Positions 1 to 58,000 of a DNA stretch of 64,000 nt are shown here, piece after piece. The stretch spans positions 32,001 through 96,000 of the forward strand of contig CAWJGT010000006.1 of the NCBI GenBank assembly GCA_963842525.1, written 5' to 3'. The stretch's first letter is position 1. Each line of letters opens with the position of its first letter. The DNA is from an uncultured Holophagales bacterium. Its GTDB lineage: Bacteria > Acidobacteriota > Thermoanaerobaculia > Multivoradales > UBA5704. Under the pieces are notes generated by a model that saw only the letters and a list, made by a program, of their open reading frames with translations, had not been told where the DNA came from and did no database searches. A program made the translations under genes and the position numbers.

Positions 1-922
1 AATCCTTGTAGTAGGCCGCCAGGGCAGCGGTCACGTCGGCGAAGCGCTCCAGATCCTCGGGATCGACCGAGAGGTCGCCCTCCGGCATGGCATCCCACAG
101 CCGCCGGCAGACCACCTGGAGCTGCACCGGCTCGACATGCTGGCCGATCACGGGCACGAACGAGCCGTCGTCCTGCTGCACCTTGACCGTCGCCAGGTCG
201 GTCACCAGCTTGTCGACCGCCGGGAACTCGCGGCCTGCGTCGCGCGCCGGCAGGACGATCGCCTCGCGGGCCGCGTTGAGGCTCAGCAGGTCGATCCGGA
301 AACGGTTCTTGAGATGCGTGGGCACCTGCCGGGCGTAGGGGTCGAGAGGAGCCAGATAGTCCTCGCGCAGCGCGAAGAGGGCCCACACCCGCGGGTTGCG
401 CAGCAGCTCGCCCAACTGATCGAAAAACTCATGCTTGGCCGCGACCCCCAGCGGATCGACGGTCAGGACCTCCTCGAATTGATCAAAGAGAAGGATTACG
501 TTCGGCGGCGCCGACCGCCGCCGCGGACGCTTTTCGAAGTAGCCTGCCAGGGTCTGGCCGGCGAGCACCTCCACCGGCCGGCGCAGGCTCTCGGGGACCT
601 TTTCCTCGAACCCCCGGATCGCGCTCAGCGCGTAGCGGTTCCTTGCGGCGTCGATCGCCGAAGCCAGCTCCGTGTTGACGCGGGTGGGGCCCCAGACATC
701 GAACGAGCGGGCGAGCAGCGGCAGCAGGCCTGCCTGCACCAGCGAGCTCTTGCCCGCCCCGGACGGCGAATGGAGCAGCATGATGCGCTCGGCATTGAGG
801 CGGAGATGCAGCTCGCCGACCTCGCGCTCACGGCCATAGAGCCGATCGCCCGGCTCGAACGGCTGCGGGCCGACGAAGGGATTTGGGCCGGCCTTCCCCT
901 CACCCAACCGTGACCCAGTCAT
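1..922 (-). CDS. nSTAND1-type P-loop NTPase, copy 1 (5' part only; runs off window start)
   Basis: Manual translation from ATG 922: MTGSRLGEGKAGPNPFVGPQPFEPGDRLYGRE...LLHSPSGAGKSSLVQAGL (Walker A)...FDQFEE (Walker B). Clear paralog of 3792-7488. Overlaps the stop of the upstream CHAT-SIR2 gene. Confidence 0.85.
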   Translation of the reverse strand, partial: MTGSRLGEGKAGPNPFVGPQPFEPGDRLYGREREVGELHLRLNAERIMLLHSPSGAGKSSLVQAGLLPLLARSFDVWGPTRVNTELASAIDAARNRYALSAIRGFEEKVPESLRRPVEVLAGQTLAGYFEKRPRRRSAPPNVILLFDQFEEVLTVDPLGVAAKHEFFDQLGELLRNPRVWALFALREDYLAPLDPYARQVPTHLKNRFRIDLLSLNAAREAIVLPARDAGREFPAVDKLVTDLATVKVQQDDGSFVPVIGQHVEPVQLQVVCRRLWDAMPEGDLSVDPEDLERFADVTAALAAYYKD

Positions 923-3032
923 CCTCTTCAGCCTCCTTGGCGGCGCTCGACGCGTCCGCGGCGGTCGCCGCGAGCTGGTCCCGCAGCTCCTTCAGGAAGT
1001 CGGCGGCGGTGCCCCAGTAGATATCGATCTGCGGCGCGCCGAGGCCGGCGCCGAGGTATTCGTCAAGGTATTCACGGGCACGCTCGACGTCGGCCAGGCT
1101 ATGGGCCTCGGGGTCGACCTGCACCCCGACGTGAGCGAAGTCGTTGAGCTTGATCCTGCCTTGGAGGGACATGATCAAACGGAAGAGGACGCGGAACGAC
1201 AGATCGTCGAGCGTGAAGCCCAGGAAGAGCAGCGAGCTTGCGACCAGGGTGCCGCTCACCGCAAAGGGCATGAGCTTGTACTCGGCGGCCGTGATCAAAT
1301 AGTCGAGGTAATCGTCCTCGGTCAGGACCAGCGAATCTTCTTTCCCCTTGCTGAAGACGCCGAAGGGGTAGTACACGATCGGTTTTTCCCACTGCGGCTC
1401 GCCCTCGTAGGGCGGCTCGGTGGCGTGGCTGTCCCGGGTCCAGCGCCACTTGCAATAGAGCGGTTTCGGCTCGCGGCCGGCGGCGAGGAGGGACAGGTGC
1501 AGAACGCGATCGGCGCTGGCGGTGACGTAGACCTTCGCCCGGAGGCCGGCCAGAATGCGAAACGGGTCGTCCTCCCCGGCCTCATCCTGCGTGCGTTTGA
1601 GGGCCGCTTCGAAAAGCTTGGGCTCGTTCGCCAGGTCGGGGTAGCGCCGCCGGATCTCGGCCCTGAGCTGCTCGGCGACGGCGTCGCGGGCATACTTGGG
1701 CTTCCCGGTGACGGCGAGGTACTGGGCGACCTTGGCGAGGTCCGAGCGGTGGTGGGGCTCGAGAGGAAAGCCGTGCGCCGCGGCAAGCCGCTCGGCCCGC
1801 TCGCGCGCGGTGCCGTAGAGATGCTCCCCGATGTCGGGGCCGAGGATCGGTACGCAGCAACCCTGACGGACATTGCTGGTAATGGAATGCCATCTTTTGA
1901 GCTGGGCTTCTTCGCCCGCTTCGCCTGCTTCGCCCGCGAAGCCCGGCTGGTACCACAGGCGCCCGCTCTTCAGCCGCAGGGTGAGCGCCGGCATCCAGGC
2001 GTCGGGCCGGTCGCGCACGGTGCCGCGGGCCACGGCGAGGGCGCGATCGATCCGGCCGTCCTTGCTCAGCTCGGAGAAGAAGACCGGGATCAGTTTCTCC
2101 ACGGTCTCCATGCTGATCTGGCCCTGCATGGCGATCACCGCGGTCACGCCGGCCTCGGCCAGCAGCGGCGCCAGCGCGGCCTGGGTGGCGCCGTCCGCCG
2201 TGCCGCCGCTCTCGCAGGACGCGAGGACTGCGAGCCGCGGCGGCTGCGGCAGCTCGCCGATGCGCTCGGCCAGCGCGGCGCCTGCGACGTGGGCGGCCTT
2301 CCCGGTCTCGTCCTGGAGGTAGAGCCAGGGGATCTGGCCGCGGATCTGGTCGCGGATGAGCGCGCCGTGGCAGACCAGATAGAGGACGTCGGTCCCCTCG
2401 CGCAACCGGGCAATCAGCCGCTCCAGGGTCAGCGGCTCCTCGCGGCCGAGGACGGCGGGCCGGATGCTGCCGAGCCCTTTCTCGGCGCGGTCGATCTCGC
2501 CGTCGAGGTCCACCTCCGCGAGCTTGTACGCGGCGAGGTCGGACGGCGCGGCGACGGCGACGAGGGCCTGGAGGTCCGCCTTGCGGCGGAGCTTGACCGG
2601 GCGCCAGTCCTGGCTGACCAGGAAGCGGGAGAAGAGCGTCTTTTCCGACGTGGCGAGCGGCGCCCGGGTGTCGGGGTCGCGGAGCAGCTCCCAGCGCAGG
2701 CCATTGAGCTCGGGAACGGACGGCCCGACCAGGAGCCGCAGACGCAGGAACCGCTCGCTCGCCGCGACCGCCGCTTTGACCCGGCCGTAGAGGCCGCGCA
2801 CCCGTTCGTCGGCGAAGATCTGTGCGGCAAGGGCCTCGCCATAGGCCCGGGGATCCTGGTGCAGGGTCAACAGCTCTTCGAGGTCGAGGGCCGCCGGCCC
2901 TCTTTCCGGAGGCACTTCGGCCTCGCTCGCCGGGTCGTTGAAGCGCAGCTCGACCTGGAAGGCCTCGGCCGCCAGCCGGGAGAGGCCGATCTCGAGCTCG
3001 GGGTAGAGGGTGGGGGAGGGGTTGGCTTTCAT
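900..3032 (-). CDS. CHAT (caspase-like) protease + SIR2-like (SIR2_2) domain protein, copy 1
   Basis: CHAT dyad motifs LYLVCHG and VLASCESG, then AVIAMQ. C-terminal half has VPILGPD...LVLTEDDYLDYL...SLLFLGFTLDD, typical of SIR2_2. Confidence 0.85.
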   Translation of the reverse strand: MKANPSPTLYPELEIGLSRLAAEAFQVELRFNDPASEAEVPPERGPAALDLEELLTLHQDPRAYGEALAAQIFADERVRGLYGRVKAAVAASERFLRLRLLVGPSVPELNGLRWELLRDPDTRAPLATSEKTLFSRFLVSQDWRPVKLRRKADLQALVAVAAPSDLAAYKLAEVDLDGEIDRAEKGLGSIRPAVLGREEPLTLERLIARLREGTDVLYLVCHGALIRDQIRGQIPWLYLQDETGKAAHVAGAALAERIGELPQPPRLAVLASCESGGTADGATQAALAPLLAEAGVTAVIAMQGQISMETVEKLIPVFFSELSKDGRIDRALAVARGTVRDRPDAWMPALTLRLKSGRLWYQPGFAGEAGEAGEEAQLKRWHSITSNVRQGCCVPILGPDIGEHLYGTARERAERLAAAHGFPLEPHHRSDLAKVAQYLAVTGKPKYARDAVAEQLRAEIRRRYPDLANEPKLFEAALKRTQDEAGEDDPFRILAGLRAKVYVTASADRVLHLSLLAAGREPKPLYCKWRWTRDSHATEPPYEGEPQWEKPIVYYPFGVFSKGKEDSLVLTEDDYLDYLITAAEYKLMPFAVSGTLVASSLLFLGFTLDDLSFRVLFRLIMSLQGRIKLNDFAHVGVQVDPEAHSLADVERAREYLDEYLGAGLGAPQIDIYWGTAADFLKELRDQLAATAADASSAAKEAEEDDWVTVG

Positions 3033-3080
3033 GGTCGCGCCGGTGCCACGACGGCATTCTGTTGATTCTTTGAGGCTTGC

Positions 3081-3497
3081 CTACTTCCAGTAAGGCTTTA
3101 CACCCAGTGGCGACAGCTTTTTCTGGAGAGGCCGGTCGAATGTGGCAACGGCGTCATAATGTCCACCGATCGCCACGGCCGCGAAGATCGCATCCCCAAA
3201 GGAGGAGATGTGGTCCGGCCAGTGCTCGAGCACCAGGCTCCAGGAGGCCTTCTCTCCAGGGATCACACCGGGCATGGCGAGCAGTTTCCCCAAAGCGCCG
3301 GCCACGTCCGAAGGAGGAAAATTGTAGAGGTTGCAGAGGACGGAGACCATCTCCGAAATGGAGACGGTGTGCAGGACGAGGAGGTGTTCCTGGCCGGCCG
3401 CGGCTGCGAAGAGAGCGGTAGCCCTCTCCTGCTGCTCCTGGTTCCTGTCGGTCAGGAAAGAGACCAGGACGTTCGTGTCGACCAGGATCTCTTTCAA
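3081..3497 (-). CDS. vapC: PIN-domain VapC-type toxin
   Basis: ILVDTNVLV...SISE...[11 protein letters not shown]...VATFD acidic PIN motifs; 138 aa; 4-nt overlap with the antitoxin. Confidence 0.85.
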
Positions 3498-3730
3498 GCG
3501 CCTTCCGTCCCCATCCGCTCTCTGGCTCTACGGACATCTTCCACCGGGTCCCCCGGGCCCACCTTGAAGCTTCCTCGAAGGTCGAGGAATGCCCGGCTGG
3601 AGGCCGTCACCCGGATATGGTCTCCCGCCAGATCCCACTGGAGCATGTCGCTCGGCCCGACCCCGAGCCTCTCCCGGACCTCCTTGGGAACCGTTGTCTG
3701 GTACTTCACAGTGATTGTGGACTTTGGCAC
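3494..3730 (-). CDS. AbrB/MazE-family antitoxin (VapB-like)
   Basis: [25 protein letters not shown] AbrB-fold motif; GTG at 3730 preceded by AAGGAG. Confidence 0.8.
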
Positions 3731-3791
3731 GACGGTCTCCTTACCTTTAGTGTAGGTTTGGTAAGGAGGCCGGGTCAAGCTACTCGGCCGA

Positions 3792-6700
3792 CTACCGCGC
3801 CTCCCGGCACTCCCGGTAGGCGCGCCAGGCTTCCACATAGCTCTCGGGCCGGCTCTCCGGCGCCTCGCCCAACCGCGCGAAAAAGACCGGCACGCAGTCC
3901 TTGCAGACTTGGAACTGGTGCTCCGCGGCTTCCTTGGTCTCGCCGAGAGCTTCGATCCGTACCGCGGGATCCAGGCAGAGCTCGTTGCGGGCGCGCAGGC
4001 GGCCGAGAAGGTAGCTGGTGTAGTCGCTGGGATTGGCCCACAGCCGCACGGTGTCCGCCGCGGCGACCAGGATGCGCGAGCCGTCCGGGCTGAAGGAGGC
4101 AGCCGTGACCCTGTTTCCTTGTCCTTGCAGTGTCCTCAAGGGCTCTCCCGTCTCCGCGTTCCAGAGCTGTGCGTTGTCCTCGGAAGCCGTGCCGACCCAG
4201 GTGCCGTTCGGGCTGAAGGCGGCGGCGGTGACCTCCGCTCCGTGCCCCTCCAAGGTGACGAGAAGCTGTCCCGTCTTGGTGTCCCAGATCCGGGCCGTCT
4301 GATCGGCGGACGCCGTCACGAGCCGGGTGCCGTCCGGGCTGAACGAGACGCTGCCGACGCTCCCGCCGTGCCCCGTCAGGGGTGCAATCAACTCGAGAGT
4401 CTTGGCGTTCCAGATGCGCGCCGTGCGGTCGGCGGACGCCGTCGCGATCCGCCTGCCGTCCCGGCTGAACGCCACAGCCGTAACTTCTTGGGTGTCCGGG
4501 AGGTCCGCGATCGGTTTTTGCGAGCTGACGTCCCAGATCCTCGCCGGCTGGTTGCGGGAGGCGGTCACGACCCGGGAGCCATCCGGGCTGAAAACGGCGT
4601 CCAGGATCTCGCCATCAGCGAACCGGGCGACCTCGGCGCCCGAGGCGGCGTCGCGGATCTGCGCCGTCGTCTCCTTTCCCTCCCTGCATACAGCCAGCAG
4701 GGAGCGGCCGTCGGGGCTGAAGGAGATGCCGGAGATCCTGTTGCACGGCCATACCCGCGAGCGAATGGCCTGCAAGGCGGTATCCCGGATGGTGCTCGTG
4801 GTCGTGCTGTTCCCGCCGATGCCCGTCACGGAGGCGGTCACGATGCGGGACCCGTCCCTGTTGAAGGAGGCGCCGGTGATCCGGCTCTCGGCGGCCTGCC
4901 GCACGGCGAGCTCCTCTCCCAGCAGGGCCTCCTCCCCGAGGGTCCATAGGCGGGCCGTGCCGTCCGCAGAAGCTGTCACGATGCGCGAGCCGTCGGGACT
5001 GAACGATGCGGAACGGACCGCGGCCGTATGGCCTCCGAGAATGGCGATCTCCGTTCCCTTGTCGACGTCCCAGACGCGCGCCGTCTCATCGTCCGAAGCC
5101 GTCACCACAAAGCGGCCGTTCGGACTGAAGGACGCGGACCGGAGGCCGGCTCCGTGACGCAGCGGCTCGCCCAAGGGCTGCCCGGTCGCCACGTCCCACA
5201 CTCGTGCGGCGCCGTCCCGGGAAGCCGTCACCACGCGCTGGCCGTCCGGACTGAACGCGGCGAACCGGACGGCCTCTCGATGGAGCAACGGCTCGCCAAT
5301 CTGCTCGCCAGTCGCCAAGTCCCACAGCCGCGCCGTGCGGTCGAAAGAGGCAGTCACGATCCACCGGCCGTCCAGGCTGAACGACGCGGACACAACGCCC
5401 CTTTCATGGCCTACCAGCTTGACCAACGGATTGCCCGCCGCATCCCACAGCCGCGCGGTCCTGTCGGTGGAAGCCGTCACGATCCGCGAGCCGTCCGGAC
5501 TGAACGAAGCGAAACTGACCCTGTCGGCATGGGAAAGCGGCTCGCCCAGCGGTTGGCCCGTCGCCGCATCCCACAGCCGCGCCGACTTGTCAGACGCCGT
5601 CACCAACCGCCGGCCGTCCGGGCTGAACGACGCGGAGCTCACGGCCTCGGCGTGAAGCAGTGGCTTGCCCAACGGCTGACCCGTCGCAGCATCCCACACG
5701 CGCGCCGTGCGATCGGCGGACGCCGTCACCACCCGCCGGCCATCCGGGCTGAACGATGCGGCAACCACCCTGCCTTCATGCTTCAGAATGGCGGAAGTTT
5801 GCGATTCGCGCTTTCCGGCCAGAACGGCCAGAGCCCTGCGAAGCGCGTCGACTGTCGTTGCAGCTTGTTCCGTTCCGCGTACCTCTAGTAGGACGAGACC
5901 GGCTTGCAAGGGTTGCGTTGCGAGCAGCCTGGCGCCGGCGCCCTCGCAGACCAGATTGTGCACCCGGCGCGCCGCCTGCTGCGCCTTCCACCATTGCAGC
6001 GCTGCGAAGCCGCCGACGAGGAGAGCGGCGGCGGCGAGGACCATCGCGGCGATCCCGAGCTTGCGGATGCGCCGCGCCTGGAGCGCTTGCTGCCGGGCCG
6101 CGGCGACCGCACCGGCCGAGGCATCGAGGTACCGGCGCTCCTCGGCCGTGCAGCTCCGCCGCATGTGCGGCGGCCCAGGCCTCGGCCTCCGCCAGCTCGT
6201 TCGCCGCCAGGAGCAGCCCGGAAGGCCTGCTCTCGCTCTCCCACAGTGCGGCCCGCCTCTGGACAGCGTTCAGATGCTTCTCGCGCCAGGCGGCATTGTC
6301 CTCCCGCACCGGCTTGATGAGCCGGTCGTGGGCCAGCTCGTACCAGGTGGCGCCGGCGCGATTCTCGGCCCGCACCAGATGGGAGGCCTGCAACTTTTCG
6401 ATGAGGTCGTTGGCCAGGCCCTCGCTCTCCCGGGCGCCCTTGAGCACCTGGGCGCGGATGCCGCCCGGAGTGATCAGCCGCTCGCCGGCCCAGTCGCGGA
6501 TCTCCCGCTCGCGGCCGAGGTCGCCGCCGCCGATCCGCGCCACGGCATCGGCGTAGTAGTCGGCCAGGGCCCGGTCGACGTTGCCGAAACGCTCGAGATC
6601 TTCCTCCTCGATCGAGAGGTCGCCCTCCGGCATGGCATCCCAGAGGCGATGGCAAACCACCTGGAGCTGCACCGGCTCCACGTGGTTGCCGGTCTGTTCC

Positions 6701-7488
6701 GCGAAGGAGCCGTCCGGTTGCTGCACCTTCGTCGTCGCCAGGTCGTGCACCAGCTTGCCGGCGGCGGGGAACTCCCGGCCCTTGTCCCGCGCCGGGTTGA
6801 CGATCGCCTCCCGCGCCGCGGCGAGCCCCAGCAGGTCGATGCGGAAGCGGTTCTTGAGATGGGTCGGCACCCGGTCGGCGTACGGATCGAGGGGCGCCAG
6901 GTAGTCCTCGCGCAGCAGGAAGAGCGCCCAGAGAAGTGGATTGTGCAGCAGCTCGCCGAGCTGGTTGAAAAACTCCTTCTTGGCCGCCACGGCCAAGGGA
7001 TCGACGGTGAGCACCTCTTCGAACTGATCGAAGATCAGGACGGCGCCCGGCGGCGAGCCGGGCTTCTTCGGCCGCCGGGTGGCGTACTCGGCGAGAGTGA
7101 GGCCGGCGAGCTCCGCCGCCGGACGGCGCAGCCTCTGCGGAATCCCCTCCTCGAAACCGAGGATCGCGCTGTGCACGTAGCGGTTGACCCTCACCTCCCC
7201 CGGCTCCTGGTTCACCCGGGTGGGCCGCCAGACGTCGAACGTTTCGCGCAGACGCGGGATGAGGCCGGCCTGGACCAGCGAGCTCTTGCCGGCGCCGGAC
7301 GGCGAATGGAGGAGGACGATGCGCTCGGCGCTCAGCAGGAAATAGAGCGCGGCGATCTCCTCGTCGCGCCCCCACAACCGTTCGCCGAGCTCGATCGGGC
7401 GCGGCCCGACATAGGGATTCCGCGTCGCGGACGCCATCTTCGCCCAGGTCTCGTCCAGGGCGTTGCGCACTGCCTCAGAACCAGCCAC
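3792..7488 (-). CDS. nSTAND1-type NTPase - transmembrane helix - WD40 beta-propeller protein, copy 2 (one frameshift near 6150)
   Basis: NPYVGPRP, HSPSGAGKSS, VLIFDQFEE and ELAHD in ORF 5776-7488. ORF 3792-6164 continues with a hydrophobic helix (LGIAAMVLAAAALLVGGFAAL) and about 14 ASFSPDG..VTAS.D.TAR.WD repeats. The two join as ...AAAHAAEL/TAEERRYLDAS. Confidence 0.85.
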
Positions 7489-9607
7489 CGCTCATCACCG
7501 CCGTTTTGGAGACCTCTTCCTCATCCTCTGCGGCCGTCTTCACGAGCTGCGATTTCAGCTCTTTCAGAAAATCGGCCGCGCTTCCCCAGTAGATGTCGAT
7601 CCGCGGCTCGCCGCGCCCGCGCCCGGCGCTGCGGTCGGCGCCAAAGTAGCTCTGCAGATACTTCCGTGCCCGCTCGACATCGGCCTTGCTGTGCACCTCG
7701 GGGTCGACCTGGACGCCGACGTGGGAGAACTGCTTGAGGTTGGCGCAACCCTCGAGGGTCATGATCAGCCGGAAGAGGACGCGAAACGTCCAGCCGTCGA
7801 GGGGAAAACCGAGGAACAGCAGCGAGCTTTCGGTGAGGGAGCCGCGCACCACGGTGGGCACCAGCTTGTAGGCTGCTGTGGCGATCAGGTAGTCGAAGAA
7901 GTCGTCCTCGGTCAAGACCAGGGAGTCCGGCTGGCCGAAGACGCCGAAGACTTGATAGACGATCGGCTTCTCGGCGCTCGGCTTGCCCTCGAAACGCGGC
8001 TCGCGGGGGTGGTTCTCCTCCGTCGGCCGCCAGTTGCTGGCGAGCAGGGTCGGCTGCCGGCCGGCCGCCTGCAGGGACTTGTAGAGCAGCGTCTCGGCGC
8101 TGGCATTGATGTAGATCCTGCCCGGCAGCTCGGCGAGGATGTGATAGGGGCAGGTCTCATCGCTGCGCTGGCCGGCGGTGTCTGCGACGATGGCATCGAG
8201 GATCTCGGGCAGCCGGCGGCCTCTGAGGGTATCGTCCAGGAGGCTGTTGCGCTTCAGGATCTGCGCACGGAGGTGCTTGAGCACGGCGGCCTGGGCGTAC
8301 TCCCGGTCCTGGTCGATGCTCAGGTACTGCGTCACTTTGGCCAGGTCGGTGCTCGCTTCGTCGTCCAGGGGGAACTTCTCGGCATCGGCCAGACGGCCGG
8401 CGAGCTCCCGGGTGGTGCCGATGAGGGTCTCCCCGAAGTCCGGACCGAGGATGGGGATGAACTTGCCTTTCCGCACCCGGCGGCAGATCGACTTCCACTT
8501 GGCGAAGTCGCCGGTTCCGGAGAAGCCCGGCTCGTACCAGATGCGTCCGCTCTTGAGCCGCAGATAGAGAGCCGGCATCCAGGCGTCGGGGCGCTCGCGC
8601 ACCGTCCCTCGCGCCACGGCCAGGGCACGGTCGATCTGGCCGTCCTTCTCCAGCTCGGAGAAGAAGACGGGAATGGCCGTCTTCACCGTCTCCATGCTGA
8701 TCCGGCCCTGCATCGCCACGACTGCCGGCACTCCCGCCTCGGCCAGGTGCGGAGCGAGCGCCGCCTGGGTGGAGCCGTCCGCCGTGCCGCCGCTCTCGCA
8801 GGAGGCGAGGACCACCAGCCGCGGCGGCGCCAGCAGCTCGCGGATCCGCTCGGCCAGTGCGGATCCCTCGACCCGGGCGACGTTGCCTTCGTCGTCCTGA
8901 AGGAACAGGTAGGGGGCCTGGCCGCGCGCCAGAGCGCCATGGCAGACCAGGTAGAGGATGTCGATGGCTCCCCCCTCGGCGCGCAACCGGGCCGCGAGGC
9001 GCTCGAGGGTCAACGGCTCGTCGCGGCCCAGCACGGTGCTGCGGATGTCCCCGAGGCCCTCCTGCGCGCGGGCGATCTCGCCGTCGCGGTCGACGGGAGC
9101 CAATTGATAGCGGGCGAGGTCGGGCGGCGCCGCGACCGCGATCACAGCCCGGAGGTCGGATTTCGGCCGCAGCTTCACCGGTCGCCAGTCCTGGCTGACC
9201 ATGAAGCGGGAGAAGAGGATCTTTTGCGACGTCCCCAGCGGAGCCTTCGTCTCCGGATCGGTGAGCAGCTCCCAGCGTACCGCGTTGAGCTCGGGGGCGG
9301 TGGGCCCCACCAGCAGCCGCAGGCGCAAGAGGTGGTTGCTCGCCTCCACCGCCGTCCTGGCCCGGCAATAGAGGAGGCGAACCTCCTCGGCGGCGAAGAC
9401 CTGCGCGGCGAGCGCCTCGCCATAGGCCCGCGCGTCCTGTTGCAGCGCCAGAAGCTCCGCGAGGTCCAAGGCGGCCAGCCCGCTCACCGGCGGAACCTCG
9501 GCCTCGCTCGCGGGATGGGTGAAGCGCAGATCCACCTGGTAGGCGTCGGCGGTCAGCCGGCGGAAGCCGACTTCGAGCTCGGCATACAGGTTGATGGCCG
9601 TGCTCAT
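7475..9607 (-). CDS. CHAT protease + SIR2-like domain protein, copy 2
   Basis: ILYLVCHG, VLASCESG, FIPILGPD, LVLTEDDFFDYL, SLLFLGFPLD; colinear with 900-3032. Confidence 0.85.
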   Translation of the reverse strand: MSTAINLYAELEVGFRRLTADAYQVDLRFTHPASEAEVPPVSGLAALDLAELLALQQDARAYGEALAAQVFAAEEVRLLYCRARTAVEASNHLLRLRLLVGPTAPELNAVRWELLTDPETKAPLGTSQKILFSRFMVSQDWRPVKLRPKSDLRAVIAVAAPPDLARYQLAPVDRDGEIARAQEGLGDIRSTVLGRDEPLTLERLAARLRAEGGAIDILYLVCHGALARGQAPYLFLQDDEGNVARVEGSALAERIRELLAPPRLVVLASCESGGTADGSTQAALAPHLAEAGVPAVVAMQGRISMETVKTAIPVFFSELEKDGQIDRALAVARGTVRERPDAWMPALYLRLKSGRIWYEPGFSGTGDFAKWKSICRRVRKGKFIPILGPDFGETLIGTTRELAGRLADAEKFPLDDEASTDLAKVTQYLSIDQDREYAQAAVLKHLRAQILKRNSLLDDTLRGRRLPEILDAIVADTAGQRSDETCPYHILAELPGRIYINASAETLLYKSLQAAGRQPTLLASNWRPTEENHPREPRFEGKPSAEKPIVYQVFGVFGQPDSLVLTEDDFFDYLIATAAYKLVPTVVRGSLTESSLLFLGFPLDGWTFRVLFRLIMTLEGCANLKQFSHVGVQVDPEVHSKADVERARKYLQSYFGADRSAGRGRGEPRIDIYWGSAADFLKELKSQLVKTAAEDEEEVSKTAVMSGGWF

Positions 9608-10513: not shown

Positions 10514-11968
10514 TTACCATGTCATCGCCATCTTGTTTTCCTTATTCCATGTGGCTTCGGCCTGCTCGAGCGACACCCGTGCCGACGGTTGGTAGAGGGC
10601 AAACAGCTTGCGCAGGTCCAGCGGGTCGATGACCAACTCCCTCTGCAGCCAGTGCTCCAAGGAATCGCCGCGACTGTCACACCTCACCTGGATTGAGCTC
10701 CCGTTCCAGGAGAGGAAGATCGACCCGAACTGCACGGCCAGCTCGTAGATCAGCTTTCCTACCGGTAAACTCATGGGAAGATGCTTCTCGTCGTAGCGGA
10801 TCTGGGGTGGCACGAGGTCGGCTCCCGAGGTGATCGACCTTCTCCCGTTGGCCGGCGGGACATAGAGCGAGTGCAGCCCCTCCGCCTGGCCGAGAGCGCT
10901 GTTCGACTTATCCCCGGTGAGGAAGAACGCGCCCTTGTGGAAGCTGAGCTGGCGCAGGAAGCCCTTGAACTGCTCGCGGATGAGCGTGTCGCCGAACGAA
11001 CCCTTCGGCGAGAAGCGGACGCTGGGAACCGCTCGTTTGACGTCGTCGCGCAGCCCTCGCAACTCGACCCGGGTGTCGAGGACCGGATCGGTCTCGCCGG
11101 TGATCAGCAGGCTGACCCCACGAAGGTCTTTGGCGAGATCGAGCTCGAGAATCTCCTGGAGGGCCCTGTATCCCATCCTTCCGATGTCGCTCAGCTCTCC
11201 TTTTTCGCCGCGGCTGTTGGCCGCCTGCTCGAGCTCGTGCATGACCGTGCTAGGCACGACGAGGAGGATCCAGTTGGGCGATGCGTTGGAACGGCAGGTG
11301 AAGTTCAGGGAGTCCAGAATCTGCTGCGTGACCACGCAGCCATAGAGGATGTTCGTGTCCAGCCCCAAGACGACGTCGTCGTACTGGCCGAGCCTGCCCG
11401 CGAGCTCGCGCCAGCGCTCCGAAAACAGAAAGCCCGTCCGGTAGAGGGCTTCGGTCACCAGGTCGCGCGGACGCTTCTTCTGCTCTTCCGGAGATGTCCC
11501 TCCGGAAACACCGTCGAGGTCCTCGCCTCCACGACAGTTGAATCCGCCCGGCGCGGGGGTGATCCGGAGCAGACTTCTCCCCTGGGAGGTGCCGACCACG
11601 ATCTGGCCCTGGGTCGCCAGCAGGTGGTCGAGGAGGAGCTGGTAGACCGGAAAGCTCACGAACTGGCCGTCGCCGGCCGGCAAGGATTGCGGATCGGCGG
11701 CATCGCTGGCGGAGCCGCCGGGGCGCAGGTGGAAGGAGGAGCAGGTGAAGACGGACTCACCAGAGCAGAGCGGCCCGATGTCCGCATCCGCCAGAGTAGT
11801 TCCGAAACCTGCGCTGAGAATGCGGTAGACCTCAGCGGCTTTCGAGATGCAGTCGCCGACCGAGACCAAGTCCAACTCCTCAGCTCCCCGGTTGAAGAGC
11901 GACAGACAGCTCAGCACGTACTCCATCGTCCGCTTGGCACCGACCGTCACTGCGGGTGTTTGATCCAT
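10514..11968 (-). CDS. Alba-like domain fused to a PIN-family nuclease domain
   Basis: N-terminus VTVGAKRTMEYVLSCLSLFNRGAEE...GDCISKA matches archaeal Alba. PIN motifs LGLDTNILY, VVPSTVMHELEQ, GDTLI, FLTGDKSN. Confidence 0.75.
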   Translation of the reverse strand: MDQTPAVTVGAKRTMEYVLSCLSLFNRGAEELDLVSVGDCISKAAEVYRILSAGFGTTLADADIGPLCSGESVFTCSSFHLRPGGSASDAADPQSLPAGDGQFVSFPVYQLLLDHLLATQGQIVVGTSQGRSLLRITPAPGGFNCRGGEDLDGVSGGTSPEEQKKRPRDLVTEALYRTGFLFSERWRELAGRLGQYDDVVLGLDTNILYGCVVTQQILDSLNFTCRSNASPNWILLVVPSTVMHELEQAANSRGEKGELSDIGRMGYRALQEILELDLAKDLRGVSLLITGETDPVLDTRVELRGLRDDVKRAVPSVRFSPKGSFGDTLIREQFKGFLRQLSFHKGAFFLTGDKSNSALGQAEGLHSLYVPPANGRRSITSGADLVPPQIRYDEKHLPMSLPVGKLIYELAVQFGSIFLSWNGSSIQVRCDSRGDSLEHWLQRELVIDPLDLRKLFALYQPSARVSLEQAEATWNKENKMAMTW

Positions 11969-11986
11969 GGCTTTCTCCGGCCGTGC

Positions 11987-13250
11987 CTAGTACGCCTGGA
12001 GCATCTCGGCCTGAGGCTCCGTAACGGGGACCCCGGCGGAGGGGAGATCGCGGAAGGAGAGCCTCCGATTGACTGAATCGACATCCACGACCTCGACGGT
12101 CAGGGGGTCTCCCACCCGTAGATCCTGGCTGAACAAACGATCGCGAAGCAAAGGAGTCATCCTGGTGTTGTGCAGCATCCCGGTCACTTGCCGATCCTCA
12201 TGGTTGATTTTGACCAGAGCAAAGCCCTTTTCTGGGACCGCCTTGTCGACACGCCCCTCGAGCATTTGCCCCCTACGGAACGGCCAAGCGGGGTCGCCTT
12301 TCGCCTGGTCCCTGGGAATCTCGATGAATTGAAGTTTCACCTCACGTTTCGCCTGGTTGATTTCGACGACCCGTGCTTTGATCTCAATCCCGGCCATTAC
12401 GTCTCGCGAGAGCTGCCCCTGCGGGATGAACCCGTGGATTCCGTAATTCATGTTTACCCAGGCGCCGGTCCCCTCACGGACGTTGACCACAACACTCCTG
12501 AACACCTCGTTGGTCGGGAACTCCTTCTCCAGCTTGGGCCAAGGGTTTTCTCCAAAAGTCAGAGAGTACTTCTGCTGGCCGTTGGAATCGACGACGAAGG
12601 CGCCTTTGAGCTTCCTTGCCGGTCTGCAGGACTCTGGTCAGATCCCTGGGGTTACGAGTCCAGGAGAAGTCCTCGACGCTCAGAAAGCCCTTGCGGCCGT
12701 CCCGTGCCTCGACCGTGGCGAACTCCGGCATCACCGACAAAACCCTGGCGGGGATCTCTTCGATCCCTGCCCCGATGAGTGGCATGAGCATCGCCTCGGC
12801 AGGGGGCTCTTTGCGAGCAGCATCGAGATTTTTTTGCAGATCGCGGGTCAACTGCAAGAGGCCCCTGCCCTCCTTGTATTGAATCTGGACGAACTGGCCA
12901 AGGTCGACCGGGACATCGTCCGGGTACATCGTGAGGATGAGAATTCGTTTGCCAATCACGTGGGCCAAGCCGACCTCATAGAGAACGTTGGGGCTCCGAC
13001 TCGTGAGGTCCGCGATGATCACTTCCGCTTCCTGAATGCCTTTCCACAATCGCTCGAGAAGAGTGCTGGCGCCGTATATTTCGTCTGCGCGGAGGGGGAC
13101 CATGCCAACTTCTCTGACCGTCTCCTCGATGACGTCTTTATAGTGCTCATCCCAGTCGAATTTCTGACCATCGCGTAACTCTTGTACGCCGTACGGCATG
13201 ATGACGAAACAGTTTCCCTTCTGCGGCCAACAATTTCTCGCAAATGGCAT
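11987..13250 (-). CDS. Nucleoside 2-deoxyribosyltransferase/TIR-like domain + three S1 (OB-fold) domains, ~420 aa (one frameshift near 12614)
   Basis: CFVIMPY...LRADE...ADLTSRSPNVLYEVGLAH. S1-like segments KGFLSVEDFSW, HGFIPQGQLS and TGMLHNTRM, with ENPW/DPAW linkers. Removing one base at ~12614 gives TGK-KLKGAFVVDSNGQQKYSLTFGENPWPKLEKEFPTNEVFRSVV and fuses the two predicted ORFs. Confidence 0.75.
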
Positions 13251-51754: not shown

Positions 51755-54700
51755 GTGACCGATCTCTCTTCCCGCCTGGCCGAGCCTCCCCCAAGAAGCG
51801 GGAGCTTCTCCTGCGCCAGCTCGACAAGAAACGGCAGGCGCCGGCCGGACTGGAGCGCATCCCGCGCCAGCCGCGAACCACGAACCGGTTCCCGGTCTCG
51901 TTCTCCCAGCTCCGCGAGTGGATCCTCGACCAGCTCGAGCCGGGCTCGGCCGCCTACAACATTCCGGGTGGATCGCACGTCCGCGGCCCGTTCGACGTGG
52001 GGGTGCTCGCCGCCGTGGTCCAGGAGATCGTACGGCGGCACGAGTCGCTACGGACGACGTTCGCGGCCACCGAGGGGGAGCCGGTGCAGGTGATCGCGCC
52101 GGAGCTGCGCTTGGAGGTCCCGGTGATCGACCTCGCGGCGCTGCCCGAGGCCGTGCGGGAGGCCGAGGCCCAGCGCCTGATCCTCTTCGAGGAGCGCCTT
52201 CCGCTCGACCTCGCCCGGGGGCCGCTGCTCCGGGTCTCGGTGCTGCGCCATGCGGAGCGGAGGCATGCGGTGCGCTTCACCATGCACCACATCGTCTCGG
52301 ACGGCTGGTCGGTCAACATCTTCTTCCGCGAGCTGGTGACGCTGTACGGCGCCTTTGCCGACGGCCTCCCCTCGCCGCTGCCGGAGCTGCCGGTGCAGTA
52401 TGCCGACTTCGTCGTGTGGCAGCGCGGCTGGCTCCAGGGTGAGGTGCTCGAGCGGCACCTCGACTACTGGCGGCGCCAGCTCGACGGGGCCCCGCCGCTC
52501 CTGGCACTGCCCACGGACCGCCCGCGCCCGCCGGTCCAGACGCTCCGGGGTGGCCACCGCCGGATCGTCATCCCCGCCGGGACCACCCAGTCGCTACGGA
52601 CCTTGGGGCAGCGGGAGGGGGCGAGCCTCTTCATGGTGCTCGCCGCCGCCTTGACGGCGCTGCTCGCCCGCTACAGCGGCCAGGACGACGTGTCGCTCGG
52701 CACCTACAGCGGCAACCGCGGGCGCGCCGAGCTCGAAGGGCTGATCGGCTTCTTCATCAGCACGCTGGTCCTGCGGACGGACCTGTCCGACGGCCCCGGC
52801 TTCCGCACCCTGGTGCAGCGGATGCGGGAGACCGCCCTGGGCGCGTTCTCCCACCAGGACCTCCCGTTCGAGAAGCTGCTCGAGACGCTCAAGGTGGAGC
52901 GGGACCTCTCGCATACGCCACTCTTCCAGGTGCACTTCCTGCTGCAGAACTTCCCGAGCCAGACGGTGGACGACGACCTCCCCGATTCGGATCTCGACCT
53001 GCGGCCTGCCATGAATGCCAATGACCATGCCAACTACGACCTCTCCTTCGAGCTCTCCGAGGCGGAGGACGAGGTGCGCGGCACGGTACAGCACAACCTC
53101 GTCCTGTTCGAGCCGGCGACCGTTGATCGGATGATTCGGCACCTCCTGGCGCTGGCCGCTGCGGCGGTGCGCGAACCCGAGGCGCCGATCCACGAGCTGC
53201 CTTTGCTCGATCCGGCGGAGCGCCGGCAGCTCCTGGTGGACTGGAGCGGAGCTTCGGTCTCGCCGGCTCCGGAGGCGCCGGTCCACGAGCTCGTCGCGCG
53301 CCGCGCGGCGGAGATGCCGGGAGAGGTGGCGGTGGAGGCCGGCGACCGTCAATGGACCTACAGGGAGCTGGCGGATCGGGCAAGCAAGCTGGCGCAGCAT
53401 CTGCGCCGCCTGGGGGTGATGCCGGAGGTGCGGGTGGGGATCGTCGCCGAGCGCTCGCCCGAGCTGCTCGCCGGGATGCTCGCGGTCCTCGCGGCCGGCG
53501 GCGCCTACGTGCCGCTCGATCCCGGGCATCCCGAGGACCGGCTCGCCTGGATGCTGGAGGACGCCGGGATTCCCTTCCTGCTGACCCGGGGCGCGACGCC
53601 GGCCTGGGCCGGGAGCGCGCAGGCGATCTCTCTCGACGGAGGCGCCTGGGAGGACGAGGAGACATCGCCGCCGAGTTTTCCCATCGATCCCGGGAGCGCC
53701 GCTTATCTGATCTACACGTCCGGCTCGACGGGGCAGCCCAAGGGGGTCGTGGTCGAGCACCGGTCGCTGGCCGCCTATGCGCGGGACGCCGCGGCCGTCT
53801 ATGGCATCGGGCCGGGCGACCGCGTCCTCCAGTTTGCCTCTCTCGGCTTCGATACCAGCGCGGAGGAGATCTGGCCCGCCCTGGCGCGCGGCGCCACGCT
53901 GGTGCTCCGCAGTGACCAGATGATCGCTTCGCCCGAGCGCTTCGCCGCGGAGCTGGGGCGCCTGGGGATCACCGTGCTCAACCTGCCCACCGCGTACTGG
54001 CACGAGCTGGCGGCGGGCCTGGACGGCCAGCCGCTGCCGGAGGCCCTGCGGCTGGTGGTGATCGGCGGCGAGAAGGCCCTCGCCGAGCGGCTGGACCTCT
54101 GGCGAGAAAGCACAGGGGCGCGGCTGGTCAACACCTACGGGCCGACGGAGGCGACGATCGTCTCCACGCGCCGCGAGATCGGTCCCGGGGAGGATCTCGC
54201 CGAGATCCCGCTCGGCCGGCCGATCGCGGGATCTCGGGTGCATGTCGTCGACCGGCGGCTGCAGGCCGTGCCGCAGGGGGTGATCGGCGAGCTGCTGGTC
54301 GGCGGCGCGGGGCTGGCCCGCGGCTATCTCGGCCGGCCCGGGCTGACGGCGGCGGCATTCGTCCCCGACCCGTTCGGGAACGATCCGGGGGCGCGGCTCT
54401 ACCGGACCGGCGACCTGGCGCGCTTCCTGCCGGCCGGCGAGCTGGAATTCCTGGGGCGGATCGACCGCCAGGTCAAGGTCCGCGGTTTCCGCGTCGAGCC
54501 CGGCGAGATCGAGAGCGTGCTCTCCGGACACCCGGGGCTGCACGCCGCCGCGGTAGACGTGCGGCCGGGGCCGTCCGGTGCGCTCCGGCTGATCGCCTGG
54601 GTGGTGCCGGCAGGCGGGCCGCCCACCTCCGGTGAGCTGCGCCGCCATCTGGCCGGCCGCCTCCCTGAGCCGCTTCTGCCTTCGGTCTTCGTGACGGTGG

Positions 54701-55071
54701 ACGCCCTGCCGCTCAACCGCTCCGGCAAGGTCGACCGCGACGCCCTGCCCGATCCCGAGGGAGACCGGCCGCACCTGGAGCACGAATACCTGGCGCCCGA
54801 GGGACCGGTCGAGGAGGCGCTTGCCGCCATCTGGGCCGAGGTCCTGGGCGTCGCTCGTGTCGGCGTGCAGGACAACTTCTTCGAGCTGGGCGGCCACTCG
54901 CTCCTGGCGACGCAGGTCGTCGCCCGCATCCGCGAGCGCCTGAAGATCGACCTCCAGCTCATCTCGCTCTTCCAGATGCCGACCGTCGAGCAGCTCGCCG
55001 TGGTGGTCGAGGAGGCGGTCCTCGACCGGCTGGAGGCGCTGGGCGAGGAGGAAGTGAGGGAGCTGCTGTGA
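51755..55071 (+). CDS. NRPS module C-A-PCP (frameshift near 51785)
   Basis: GTG 51755 after AAGGAG; HHIVSDGWS, YTSGSTGQPKG, YGPTE, YRTGD, NRSGKVDR, FFELGGHSL. Confidence 0.9.
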
Positions 55072-58000
55072 GGCCTCACCCCCAGGCGGAGGCGTCCGTG
55101 ACGCAAGCTGGCCTTCGCGAGATGTTGACTGCCCGGCTGGCTGCCCGGCTGGAGATCGATCCGTCGGAGATCGATCCTCGGGAGTCGTTCCACAGCTACG
55201 GGCTGGACTCGGCCGGGGCCGTGAGGCTCATCGACGAGCTGTCCGCCGAGTTGGGGCGGACGCTGTCGCCGACGCTGGTGTGGGCCTATCCGACAGTCGG
55301 GGAGCTGGCGCGGCATCTCTCGGCCGGAGAGAGCGCTCCGGTCCGGACGGCGGCTCGGGTCCAGGCTCGCCGTTCGGTCGACGAGCCGATCGCCATCGTG
55401 GGCCTGGCCTGCCGCTTCCCGGGAGCGCCCGACCTCCAGGCCTTCTGGCGGATGCTCTGCGACGGGGTGGACGCCACAGGTCCGATCCCTCCGGACCGCT
55501 GGGATGCCGAGGCCTGGTACCACCCCGATCCGGAGACGCCGGGCACCATCAACACCCGCCGCGGCGCCTTCCTGGACCGCATCGACGAATTCGATCCCCT
55601 CTTTTTCGGCATCTCCCCCCGGGAGGCCGCGGAGATGGACCCCCAGCAGCGGCTCATGCTGGAGCTGGCGTGGGAGGCCCTGGAGGACGCCGGCATCCCG
55701 CCCCGCTCGCTGGCCGGGACGCGGACGGGCGTCTTCGTCGGCGTCGTCGCCCACGACTATGCCGAGGCCCGGCGGACCCACGGAGGGCCCCCCATCTCCC
55801 ACACCGGGCCGGGCACGTCCCTGAGCATCGTCCCCAACCGGGTCTCCTACCTCCTGGGGCTGCGCGGCCCCAGCCTGGCGGTGGACACCGCCTGCTCGTC
55901 GTCCCTGGTGGCGGTCCACCTGGCCTGCCGGAGCCTCCGGGACGGCGAGTCGGCCGTGGCCCTTGCCGCGGGGATCAACCTGGTGCTGATCCCCGGGCTC
56001 ACCGCCGAGCTGACCAAGTTCGGCCTCTCCGGCGACGGCCGCTGCAAGGCCTTCGATGCCCGGGCGGACGGCTTCGGCCGCGGCGAGGGGGGCGGGGTGG
56101 CCGTGCTCAAGCCCCTCTCCCGCGCCTTGGCCGACGGCGACCGCGTCTACTGCCTGATCCGCGGCGGCGCGGTGAACAACGACGGTGCCAGCAACGGCCT
56201 CACCGCCCCGAGCCCCCAGGCGCAGGTGGAGGTGCTCCAGGAGGCCTATGCCCGGGCGGGGATCGACCCGCGCCGGGTCCACTATGTGGAGGCCCACGGC
56301 ACGGGCACGCCGCTGGGCGATCCCATCGAGGCCCGGGCCCTGGCCACGATCCTGTGCGCCGACCGCGATCCGTCCCGTCCCCTGGCGATCGGATCGGTGA
56401 AGACCAACATCGCCCACCAGGAGTCGGCCGCCGGCATCGCCGGGCTGATCAAGCTGGCCCTGGCGATCCACCACCGGGCCATCCCTCCCAGCCTGTGCTT
56501 CGAGGCTCCCAACCCGGACATTCCCTTCGAGGAGCTGCGCCTGCGTCTCCAGGCCGCCCTCGGGCCCTGGCCCGCCTGGGAGGACAAACCGGAGCCCGCG
56601 GTGGGGGGAGTCAGCTCTTTTGGATGGGGCGGCACGAACTGCCACGTGGTGCTGGAGGAGCTGCGGGACCCTCACCCCCCTGGCCCCCCTCTCCCATCCG
56701 CACTCCCTTCCCCCGGGAGAGGGGGGGACAAAGACAAAGACAAAGAAGAAGAGATCCTGAGCAGGAGGAGTTTTTCTCCCCTCTCCCGGGGGGCTGGGAG
56801 TGCGGATGGGAGAGGGGCCGGGGGTGAGGGCCGCCCGGTCTTCGTCTTCTCCGGCATGGGCTTCGAGTGGCCGGGGATGGGCCGTGACCTCCTGCGCTCC
56901 GAGCCCCTGTTCCGCGCCCGGCTGGAGCGCTGCGACGCCGTGGTGCGGTCTCTCGGCGGCTGGTCGATCCTGGAGGAGCTTTGGTCGGGCGGCGAGCGCT
57001 GGGGGGAGGCCGCGATGGCGGCGCCCCTGGTCGTCTCCTTCCAGATCGCGCTCTGCGACCTCTGGCGCTCCTGGGGCGTGGAGCCCGCGGCGGTGGTGGG
57101 GCACAGCCTCGGCGAGATGTCGGCGGCCTATGCGGCGGGCGTGCTCTCCCTGGAGGAGGCGGTCCGGGTCGCCTGGTGGTATGGCGCCTGCCTCCGGCCC
57201 ATCGACGGCCGGGGGGCCATGGGGGCGGTGGCGCTCCCCCCGGAGGCGGTCCGGGAGAGGATCGCCGCCCGGCCCGCCGGGCAGAACCGGCTGGAGATCT
57301 GCGCCTGCCTCAGCCCGACCTTGACGGTCGTGGCCGGCGAGGCCGCCGAGGTCGACGCCTTCCTGGCGCGGGTCAAGGCCGAGGGCTGCCGGTTCGCCGC
57401 CCGGGTGCCCGTCGCCATTGCGGGCCACACGTCCTGGGCGGAGCCCTGCCTGCCGGAGCTGGCAGAGGGCATCCGCGGCCTCGTGCCGCGCCGTCCCCGC
57501 CTGCCCCTGGCCTCCACCGTGGCCGGGGGTCCTCTGGACCGGCCCATGGACGTCGCGTACTGGCTGGACAACCTGCGCCGGCCGGTGCTCTTTTCCCAGG
57601 CGGTCGAGCACCTGCTGGCAGCCGGCCACGATCTGTTCCTGGAGGTCGATGCCGACCCGATCCTGGCCACGCCGCTGAAGCAGTGCTTCGCGGCTTCCGG
57701 CGTCGCCGCCACATGGCTCCCGTCCCTGCGCCGGGGAAAGGACAGCCGGACGGTGCTCCTCGCCTCCGCCTCTACCCTGGGCTCCGCCGGCCGGCCGGTG
57801 CGGGAAGAGCGGGCGGATCTCCTGCCCCTCTCGGCCCGCACGCCCGAGGCGCTGCGGGATCTGGCCCGGGCCACCGCCGGTCGGCTCCGCGAGCCGGAGG
57901 CCGCGGCCCTCGCCGACTTTGCCTGGACCGCCGCGGTGCGCCGCACCCACCACGAGCACCGTCTGGCCGCCGTGGGCCGCTCGTGGTCCGATCTGGCCGG

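Follow-up and report, generated by a model that had tools for sequence, protein, structure and literature searches.

Duplicated CHAT–SIR2-like/nSTAND1 cassettes in an uncultured Holophagales bacterium, a conserved variant of STAND conflict systems with a putative adaptor

Introduction

Among described bacterial conflict systems, the closest to the locus considered here are built on nSTAND1 NTPases that carry a variable C-terminal sensor and draw on caspase-like or TIR effectors, including effectors supplied by a neighbouring gene; in these systems (PMC7159879, PMC8195603), the parts are coupled by small homotypic EADs. Here we analyse a 64,000-nt stretch of DNA from an uncultured Holophagales bacterium (the window; GCA_963842525.1, contig CAWJGT010000006.1, G000:C6:32001-96000, where G000 denotes this genome), in which a cassette of a CHAT–SIR2-like gene and an nSTAND1 receptor gene occurs twice. 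In contrast to those systems, an EAD is missing from the STAND, and a degenerate SIR2-like domain would do the coupling.

Several other systems share individual features. Avs5 (EfAvs5, PMC11897194) likewise combines a SIR2 domain with a STAND NTPase and a C-terminal sensor, yet it is a single protein with active NADase function, whereas the cassette divides these parts between two genes, has lost the sirtuin residues, and combines a transmembrane (TM) receptor with a protease output. Avs and bacterial NLR proteins have a C-terminal repeat sensor in common with the window STANDs but carry an N-terminally fused effector; the sirtuin NADases ThsA, DSR2 and Avs5 share the fold of the window domain but not the loss of the catalytic Asn and His. 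In the SAVED-CHAT/PCaspase pair of the Haliangium ochraceum type III-B CRISPR system, described in 10.1101/2023.06.23.546230, a CHAT protease of matching fold is likewise paired with another protease of the caspase clan, and a Ser/Thr kinase is often present; its trigger, however, is cA3 binding to SAVED and its second protease is of family C14, whereas the present locus has no SAVED, a membrane STAND as its predicted trigger and a second protease of gingipain/C25-like type. Avs2-trypsin-MBL (10.64898/2026.08.25.746987) resembles the cassette in that its STAND, on oligomerising, switches on a protease tied to a second effector, but differs in having its trypsin fused in cis and a TPR sensor that recognises the terminase. 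Lastly, the gingipains RgpB and Kgp (peptidase C25) share their catalytic fold and His/Cys dyad with the third component of the locus, although identity is only ~15%, neither signal peptide nor prodomain was seen by eye in the alignment of the C25-like proteins, and these end in variable cargo (TIR or a small unnamed domain).

By the features tested, the cassette is not an Avs, a bNACHT, an active sirtuin or an EAD-coupled system, and works like an adaptor-dependent NLR. It is a real, conserved and uncharacterised variant of STAND conflict systems: no description of it was found in the literature, covered mostly as open access, or in the searched Kaur supplements, while the supplements of PMC12803255 and of bioRxiv papers may list these clades.

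Results

The SIR2-like domain and the nSTAND1 receptor form a constant unit

Beyond the window, we drew on 55 genome loci and, from 417 metagenome matches, the best 80 (135 in total; L-numbers denote these related loci), and counted linkage where at least 500 nt were available downstream. A STAND gene directly follows the CHAT–SIR2-like gene in 50/52 genome and 61/61 metagenome loci (111/113), which bears out the linkage that an earlier note, made from the window sequence alone, had proposed to check in gene neighbourhoods. The NTPase begins a median of 66 nt (22–225) past the end of the SIR2-like match (85 loci), and a weak search for a fused SIR2-like–STAND protein found none in 2 longer matches.

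Both window copies show the duplicated unit that the note had reported, as colinear minus-strand units (63% protein identity between the CHAT–SIR2-like genes, and 71% DNA identity between the copies over ~3.4 kb) in which that gene overlaps its receptor gene, by 23 nt for copy 1 and by 14 nt for copy 2. The GTG start of the copy-2 nSTAND1 gene also opens the orthologous open reading frame (ORF) in L001. The two 710-aa proteins match CHAT (PF12770; 82 and 90 bits, cut-off 24) and SIR2_2 (PF13289), and the receptors match nSTAND1 (PF20703; 109.5 and 100.6 bits, cut-off 27.1). Walker A Lys and Walker B Asp are kept in 49/49 aligned STANDs, and neither window STAND has an N-terminal effector, as the note had stated for one of them. 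Gene linkage, protease dyads, Walker motifs, loss of sirtuin residues and divergence of the sensors can all be read from the sequences themselves.

This genome extends the pattern beyond CHAT. It holds 10 related SIR2-like genes, whose cargo is CHAT (2), TIR (6), EAD11 (1) or none (1); since nine of them, with varied cargo, directly precede an effector-less nSTAND1 gene, the constant unit is SIR2-like plus nSTAND1, and CHAT is one of several cargoes. The tenth is flanked by a STAND and a further SIR2-TIR gene. An upstream SIR2-like gene is lacking for two effector-less STANDs, and another six nSTAND1 genes have a TIR (5) or DUF4062-like domain (1) N-terminally in cis. Pfam found no EAD on any window protein, the EAD11 being on a different SIR2-like gene, and in the nSTAND1 source-data file of Kaur et al. 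0/8 SIR2 mentions show a SIR2 gene directly before nSTAND1. One region (G000:C9:1457517-1478135) is, as labelled by eye, an array of three nSTAND1-TM and three SIR2-TIR genes, with WD40-type repeats in two of the former and with toxin-antitoxin-like and ATPase genes interspersed.

A degenerate sirtuin is the probable coupler

The SIR2-like domain is modelled as a sirtuin fold (predicted local distance difference test, pLDDT, 88), and its Foldseek matches include ThsA (7uxt, E 2.7e-10), KomBC (9v0g, E 4.3e-10) and DSR2. The sirtuin motif histidine, whose role is reflected in the titles of PDB mutant entries, is retained in 0/43 SIR2-like sequences and the TTNYD-motif Asn in 7/43, being Ser in both window copies, which read TASAD/NASAE and YPFG/QVFG at these motifs. 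The Gly-rich NAD-binding motif is also altered, with GPD replacing GAG. On these sequence grounds the domain is probably catalytically dead; in EfAvs5, which has Asn at the corresponding position, N141A abolishes defence (PMC11897194). In two stand-alone SIR2-like genes before nSTAND1 (G000:C20:18077-18982 and one in L079) the TTNYD and HG motifs are intact, and both may represent active forms from which the dead adaptor descends; a single gene at G000:C4:214513-218112 places an intact-looking SIR2 before a P-loop, an Avs5-like in-cis layout.

Alongside the linkage above, two lines of evidence suggest that this domain is probably a docking adaptor that couples the effector to the STAND. Across 39 pairs, SIR2-like distances correlate with STAND distances at r 0.88 (partial 0.81), compared with 0.66 (partial 0.33) for CHAT versus STAND. 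Furthermore, for the NTPase and SIR2-like domain of copy 2, the predicted complex reached 0.70 and the best control 0.00, by a measure whose mark was reached by 116/157 solved and 2/215 mismatched pairs; contacts agreed between runs to at least 88% and partner pLDDT was at least 78. The interaction of the paired proteins, on which the note's idea of activation in trans depended, thus gains support from modelling. The 17 predicted interface residues of the SIR2-like domain are weakly conserved (0.36 versus 0.54 on average), with 6/17 common to the two window copies and 15/17 common to copy 2 and its L001 orthologue, a divergence that fits insulation between paralogues if the modelled interface is right.

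Some observations weigh against this coupling. Two of the 52 genome loci (L022 and L030) have no downstream STAND; the SIR2-STAND correlation may stem from adjacency and shared ancestry, its pairs being non-independent; solved SIR2-NTPase structures may have shaped the complex score; and since the mark is also reached by close cousins of true partners, the score cannot show cognate specificity. Alternatively, the SIR2-like domain might sense a nucleotide ligand (NAD+, ADP-ribose or a TIR product) and gate CHAT allosterically, as SAVED does in SAVED-CHAT, with the STAND only localising the protein or acting in parallel. Such a role would suit a V-x-T-E-D-D-x-x-D motif that is invariant in 43/43 sequences and lies outside the predicted STAND interface, the fold matches to ThsA, KomC and DSR2, and the fusion of TIR to the downstream C25-like protease here and in G016. 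However, TIR occurs on only two of the C25-like proteins aligned from CHAT-SIR2 loci (a third was clipped by the locus end), the NAD-binding motif is altered, and the STAND gene is a near-constant neighbour, so that we regard ligand sensing as improbable and a docking adaptor as the better account.

The receptors are predicted to span the membrane

Neither receptor is one intact ORF in the assembly, contrary to the note's complete STAND protein; each continues through a predicted TM helix into C-terminal WD40 repeats, and following copy 1 leftward, as the note had advised, recovered its sensor. A TM helix is predicted between NTPase and sensor in 83/86 related STAND ORFs, and the flank on the NTPase side is the more basic one in 70 of these 83, from which a cytoplasmic NTPase and an outward-facing sensor are predicted; against this topology, 3/86 STANDs miss a clear TM helix. 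Sensor types in 28 scanned relatives include WD40, TPR, LysM and DUF4337.

The interruptions are single frameshifts, each upstream of the TM helix with no in-frame stops on either side; compared with L001, copy 2 has a single additional base near 6150 (one gap over 489 aligned nt). Using a frame-aware model on six sampled regions of this genome, we counted 52 frameshifts in ~502 kb of coding DNA (~1 per 10 kb), both receptor shifts included. Five related loci had none in 38.7 kb, where about 4 were expected, and the receptor shifts are therefore probably assembly errors. Were both receptors instead true pseudogenes, the window cassettes would be decaying and would no longer work in this organism. 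That each receptor gene carries a frameshift counts in favour of decay, the chance of both being hit at the genome-wide rate being only ~0.1, and the strain's own reads were not found, which leaves the state of both genes a point against a working system. The genome-wide excess of shifts, the absence of in-frame stops, catalytic motifs that are all intact, and continuous receptor ORFs in the orthologues of L001, L002 and L005 make decay quite unlikely, in our judgement, compared with an intact receptor misassembled. Two public read runs were uninformative on the indel: they held 0.05 of the words, and among what was listed no contig piece bridged the copy-2 junction and no RNA holder appeared. 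Programmed frameshifting was ruled out, as the shift sites differ between copies and the relatives are continuous.

CHAT is accompanied by an optional gingipain-fold protease

The CHAT His and Cys dyad is retained in 43/43 sequences, and the fold matches Csx29 and SAVED-CHAT; Pfam found no SAVED domain, and the PADLOC SAVED_CHAT match is confined to the CHAT part. A profile search for CHAT-SIR2 picked out 1628 of 8000 candidate proteins, and part of these hits may cover a single domain. A further protein, P0122, has a CHAT domain without its His and a SIR2-like domain behind a fused SAV_2336-type N-terminal domain.

A C25-like protease gene accompanies the unit in 28/55 genome and 28/80 metagenome loci, on the same strand in 49/56; in long loci (at least 12 kb) it is present in 19/31 and 14/25 (33/56). 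The Pfam C25 match of this genome's protein is marginal (23.1 bits, cut-off 23) and reaches 43.2 bits in a relative, while the model of the L052 homologue superposes on gingipain RgpB (Z 25.5, root-mean-square deviation 3.4 Å, 309 aligned), and 26/26 of the proteins hold the His and Cys dyad. The note had seen no obvious protease substrate in the window; none indeed lies inside it, but a C25-like protease–TIR gene just to its left encodes what is likely a candidate CHAT substrate. The C25-like gene is nevertheless absent from 23/56 long loci and also stands beside unrelated TPR-CHAT genes, so the protease is an optional, shared partner, which weighs against a cascade fixed to the cassette.

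When 301 genomes were drawn evenly from the phylum, 8 contained the C25-like gene, which lies within 6 kb of 3/3 non-self CHAT-SIR2 loci. A CHAT gene adjoins it in 8/10 non-self regions, representing three architectures, and in 3/3 in this genome; since a CHAT neighbour within 6 kb is expected by chance in ~7% (58 CHAT-bearing ORFs in 9.95 Mb of this genome), the protease travels with CHAT and the SIR2-like domain with the STAND. In L086 the neighbour of the C25-like gene is CHAT-only (71% identity to the window CHAT), without SIR2 or STAND, and in L091 and L092 the region around the C25-like gene has no CHAT gene.

The C-terminal domain of the C25-like protein has no Pfam, NCBIfam or Atlas match. 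Many C25-like proteins end in an unnamed domain of ~110 aa (L015:4244-6157, aa 515-638), a candidate adaptor or released effector that also occurs stand-alone (L142:16800-17168, L169:15013-15336, L183:16582-16905); a small 170-aa gene in five loci is a doubtful copy of the C25 C-terminal domain (E 0.008–0.09). In a Chloroflexia locus, the C25-like gene is immediately followed by a trypsin-like protease plus endonuclease I gene (L050:13101-15032), which may be a further cascade step. As a natural fusion, P0121 joins C25-like, CHAT and SIR2-like parts, but with 2/5 cluster members that long and 0/135 loci fused, we counted this Rosetta stone as weak.

The duplication is old, local and outside defence islands

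Between the window copies, identity is 74% for CHAT, 69% for the NTPase, 55% for the SIR2-like domain and 25% for the WD40 sensor, in line with the note's proposal that paralogous cassettes have different specificities. The closest relatives are Thermoanaerobaculia/Acidobacteriota genomes, and because L001 carries both copies, each 79–87% identical to its own type, the duplication, judged from sequence, predates the split from that species. The 71% identity of the copies and the presence of both orthologues in L001 rule out a recent duplication or an assembly duplicate, and gene conversion of CHAT between copies is unsupported, as CHAT groups by copy type. The copy-1 sensor matches L005 (65%) rather than L001 copy 1 (28%), which suggests that sensors are exchanged. 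Full two-cassette arrays occur in only 2/135 loci (L001 and L027), with an extra STAND in six more, and duplication is therefore a local feature outside the definition of the system. With 5/301 genomes in the even draw, the SIR2-like clade is patchy.

The cassette neighbourhoods are not defence islands: among 147 neighbour proteins taken from ~195 available around the 55 genome loci, PADLOC matches (1e-10) were found for 8, mostly with generic domains. Neither of the STANDs, nor the WD40 part of copy 2, had a match in PADLOC 2.0, and NCBIfam names none of the core proteins. Both PADLOC results weigh against immunity, and the scarcity of defence neighbours in particular makes non-lethal signalling across the envelope (envelope stress, neighbour or predator sensing, development), through the same receptor-adaptor-protease wiring, a serious rival. 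The tandem layout kept in a related species (L001), a Ser/Thr kinase-TPR gene in 15/55 genome and 7/80 metagenome loci, C25-like genes following TPR-CHAT genes in sigma-factor-type loci and LysM among the sensors all point the same way. Patchiness, swapping of sensors between orthologues, and exchange of TIR, CHAT and EAD11 cargo are, however, typical of conflict systems, and we consider envelope signalling unlikely, if by no means negligible, relative to an immune role.

Other features of the locus

Coordinates are collected in Table 1. The vapBC-type pair between the copies is preceded by a sigma70-like promoter match (3778-3749) and lies outside the conserved unit, the inter-copy gap of L001 (~345 nt) being too small for it.

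Table 1 Features of the two cassettes and their surroundings; negative window positions lie left of the window start on the same contig, C6
Feature	Position	Strand	Description
CHAT–SIR2-like gene, copy 2	7475-9607	-	710 aa; CHAT aa ~8-355 with His223/Cys270; SIR2-like aa ~365-690 without catalytic Asn, His
nSTAND1–TM–WD40 receptor gene, copy 2	3792-7488	-	ORFs 5776-7488 and 3792-6164; frameshift near 6150
vapBC-type toxin-antitoxin pair	3081-3736	-	AbrB/MazE-like antitoxin 3494-3736, PIN 3081-3497; between copies, outside conserved unit
CHAT–SIR2-like gene, copy 1	900-3032	-	710 aa; protease dyad intact, SIR2 motifs degenerate
nSTAND1–TM–WD40 receptor gene, copy 1, 5′ part	1-922	-	Runs on leftward to G000:C6:29064; frameshift near C6:31695 (window ~-305)
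C25-like protease–TIR gene	G000:C6:25944-28586 (window -6056..-3414)	-	880 aa; His/Cys dyad, TIR and small unnamed C-terminal domain; after copy 1

Between STAND copy 1 and the C25-like gene, outside the window, lies a small gene without a Pfam match (G000:C6:28586-29060; L056:6590-7061); judged by eye it has a lipoprotein-like signal, and it reads as fused to the protease ORF via a frameshift. Also left of the window, a TPR-S plus patatin gene (G000:C6:23017-25932; L056:1018-3930) is convergent with the C25-like–TIR gene. Within the window, minus-strand positions 10514-13250 hold an Alba-like plus PIN gene (484 aa) preceded by a nucleoside-deoxyribosyltransferase/TIR-like plus S1-domain gene that is split by a frameshift near 12613; this region of lower GC (0.59–0.64), with a weak PADLOC TIR-effector match (E 1e-6), is a possible separate RNA-targeting conflict module. 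Several overlapping ORFs of 1000–1600 aa occupy GC-rich DNA at 51997-64000.

Discussion

The mechanism that we favour, with a confidence that falls a little short of even, runs from receptor through dead-sirtuin adaptor to CHAT and on to the C25-like protease. The nSTAND1 protein would be a split, membrane-anchored NLR-like switch, its cytoplasmic NTPase joined by a single TM helix to a variable outward sensor, and the SIR2-like pseudo-enzyme, whose binding to the STAND is predicted from models as is the TM topology, would bind the N-terminal helix of the NTPase so that the effector is supplied in trans. From this arrangement we infer that sensing of a trigger would lead the STAND to oligomerise and cluster the docked CHAT protease, which might then cleave and activate in trans the neighbouring gingipain-fold protease, here fused to TIR; the amplified output would probably be suicide or dormancy. 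The two paralogues of the window would channel two different sensors into one shared downstream protease. A precedent for such a cascade is the cleavage of PCaspase by SAVED-CHAT (10.1101/2023.06.23.546230). The earlier note missed the predicted membrane-spanning receptor, the probably dead SIR2-like coupler, the standing of CHAT as one cargo and the candidate substrate.

A broader reading, which we put forward as doubtful yet worth entertaining, is that these genes represent a widespread, modular "membrane inflammasome", in which TM STANDs would sense outside the cytoplasm and the dead sirtuin would be a lock-and-key adaptor, the counterpart of ASC/CARD, for interchangeable effectors. The CHAT version would then be an initiator-to-executioner cascade onto a gingipain-fold protease, with paralogues insulated by a fast-diverging adaptor interface.

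In the bacterial NLR-like proteins characterised so far, to our knowledge, the effector is present in cis and sensing is intracellular. If the proposed wiring is true, sensing across the membrane, a dead enzyme for docking and a series of two caspase-clan proteases would make the cassette a close prokaryotic parallel to adaptor-dependent inflammasomes, and a large group of SIR2-like genes, probably misinterpreted as NADases, would gain a function. With two paralogous pairs and about ten cassettes bearing different cargoes, this genome is a natural test panel for that wiring.

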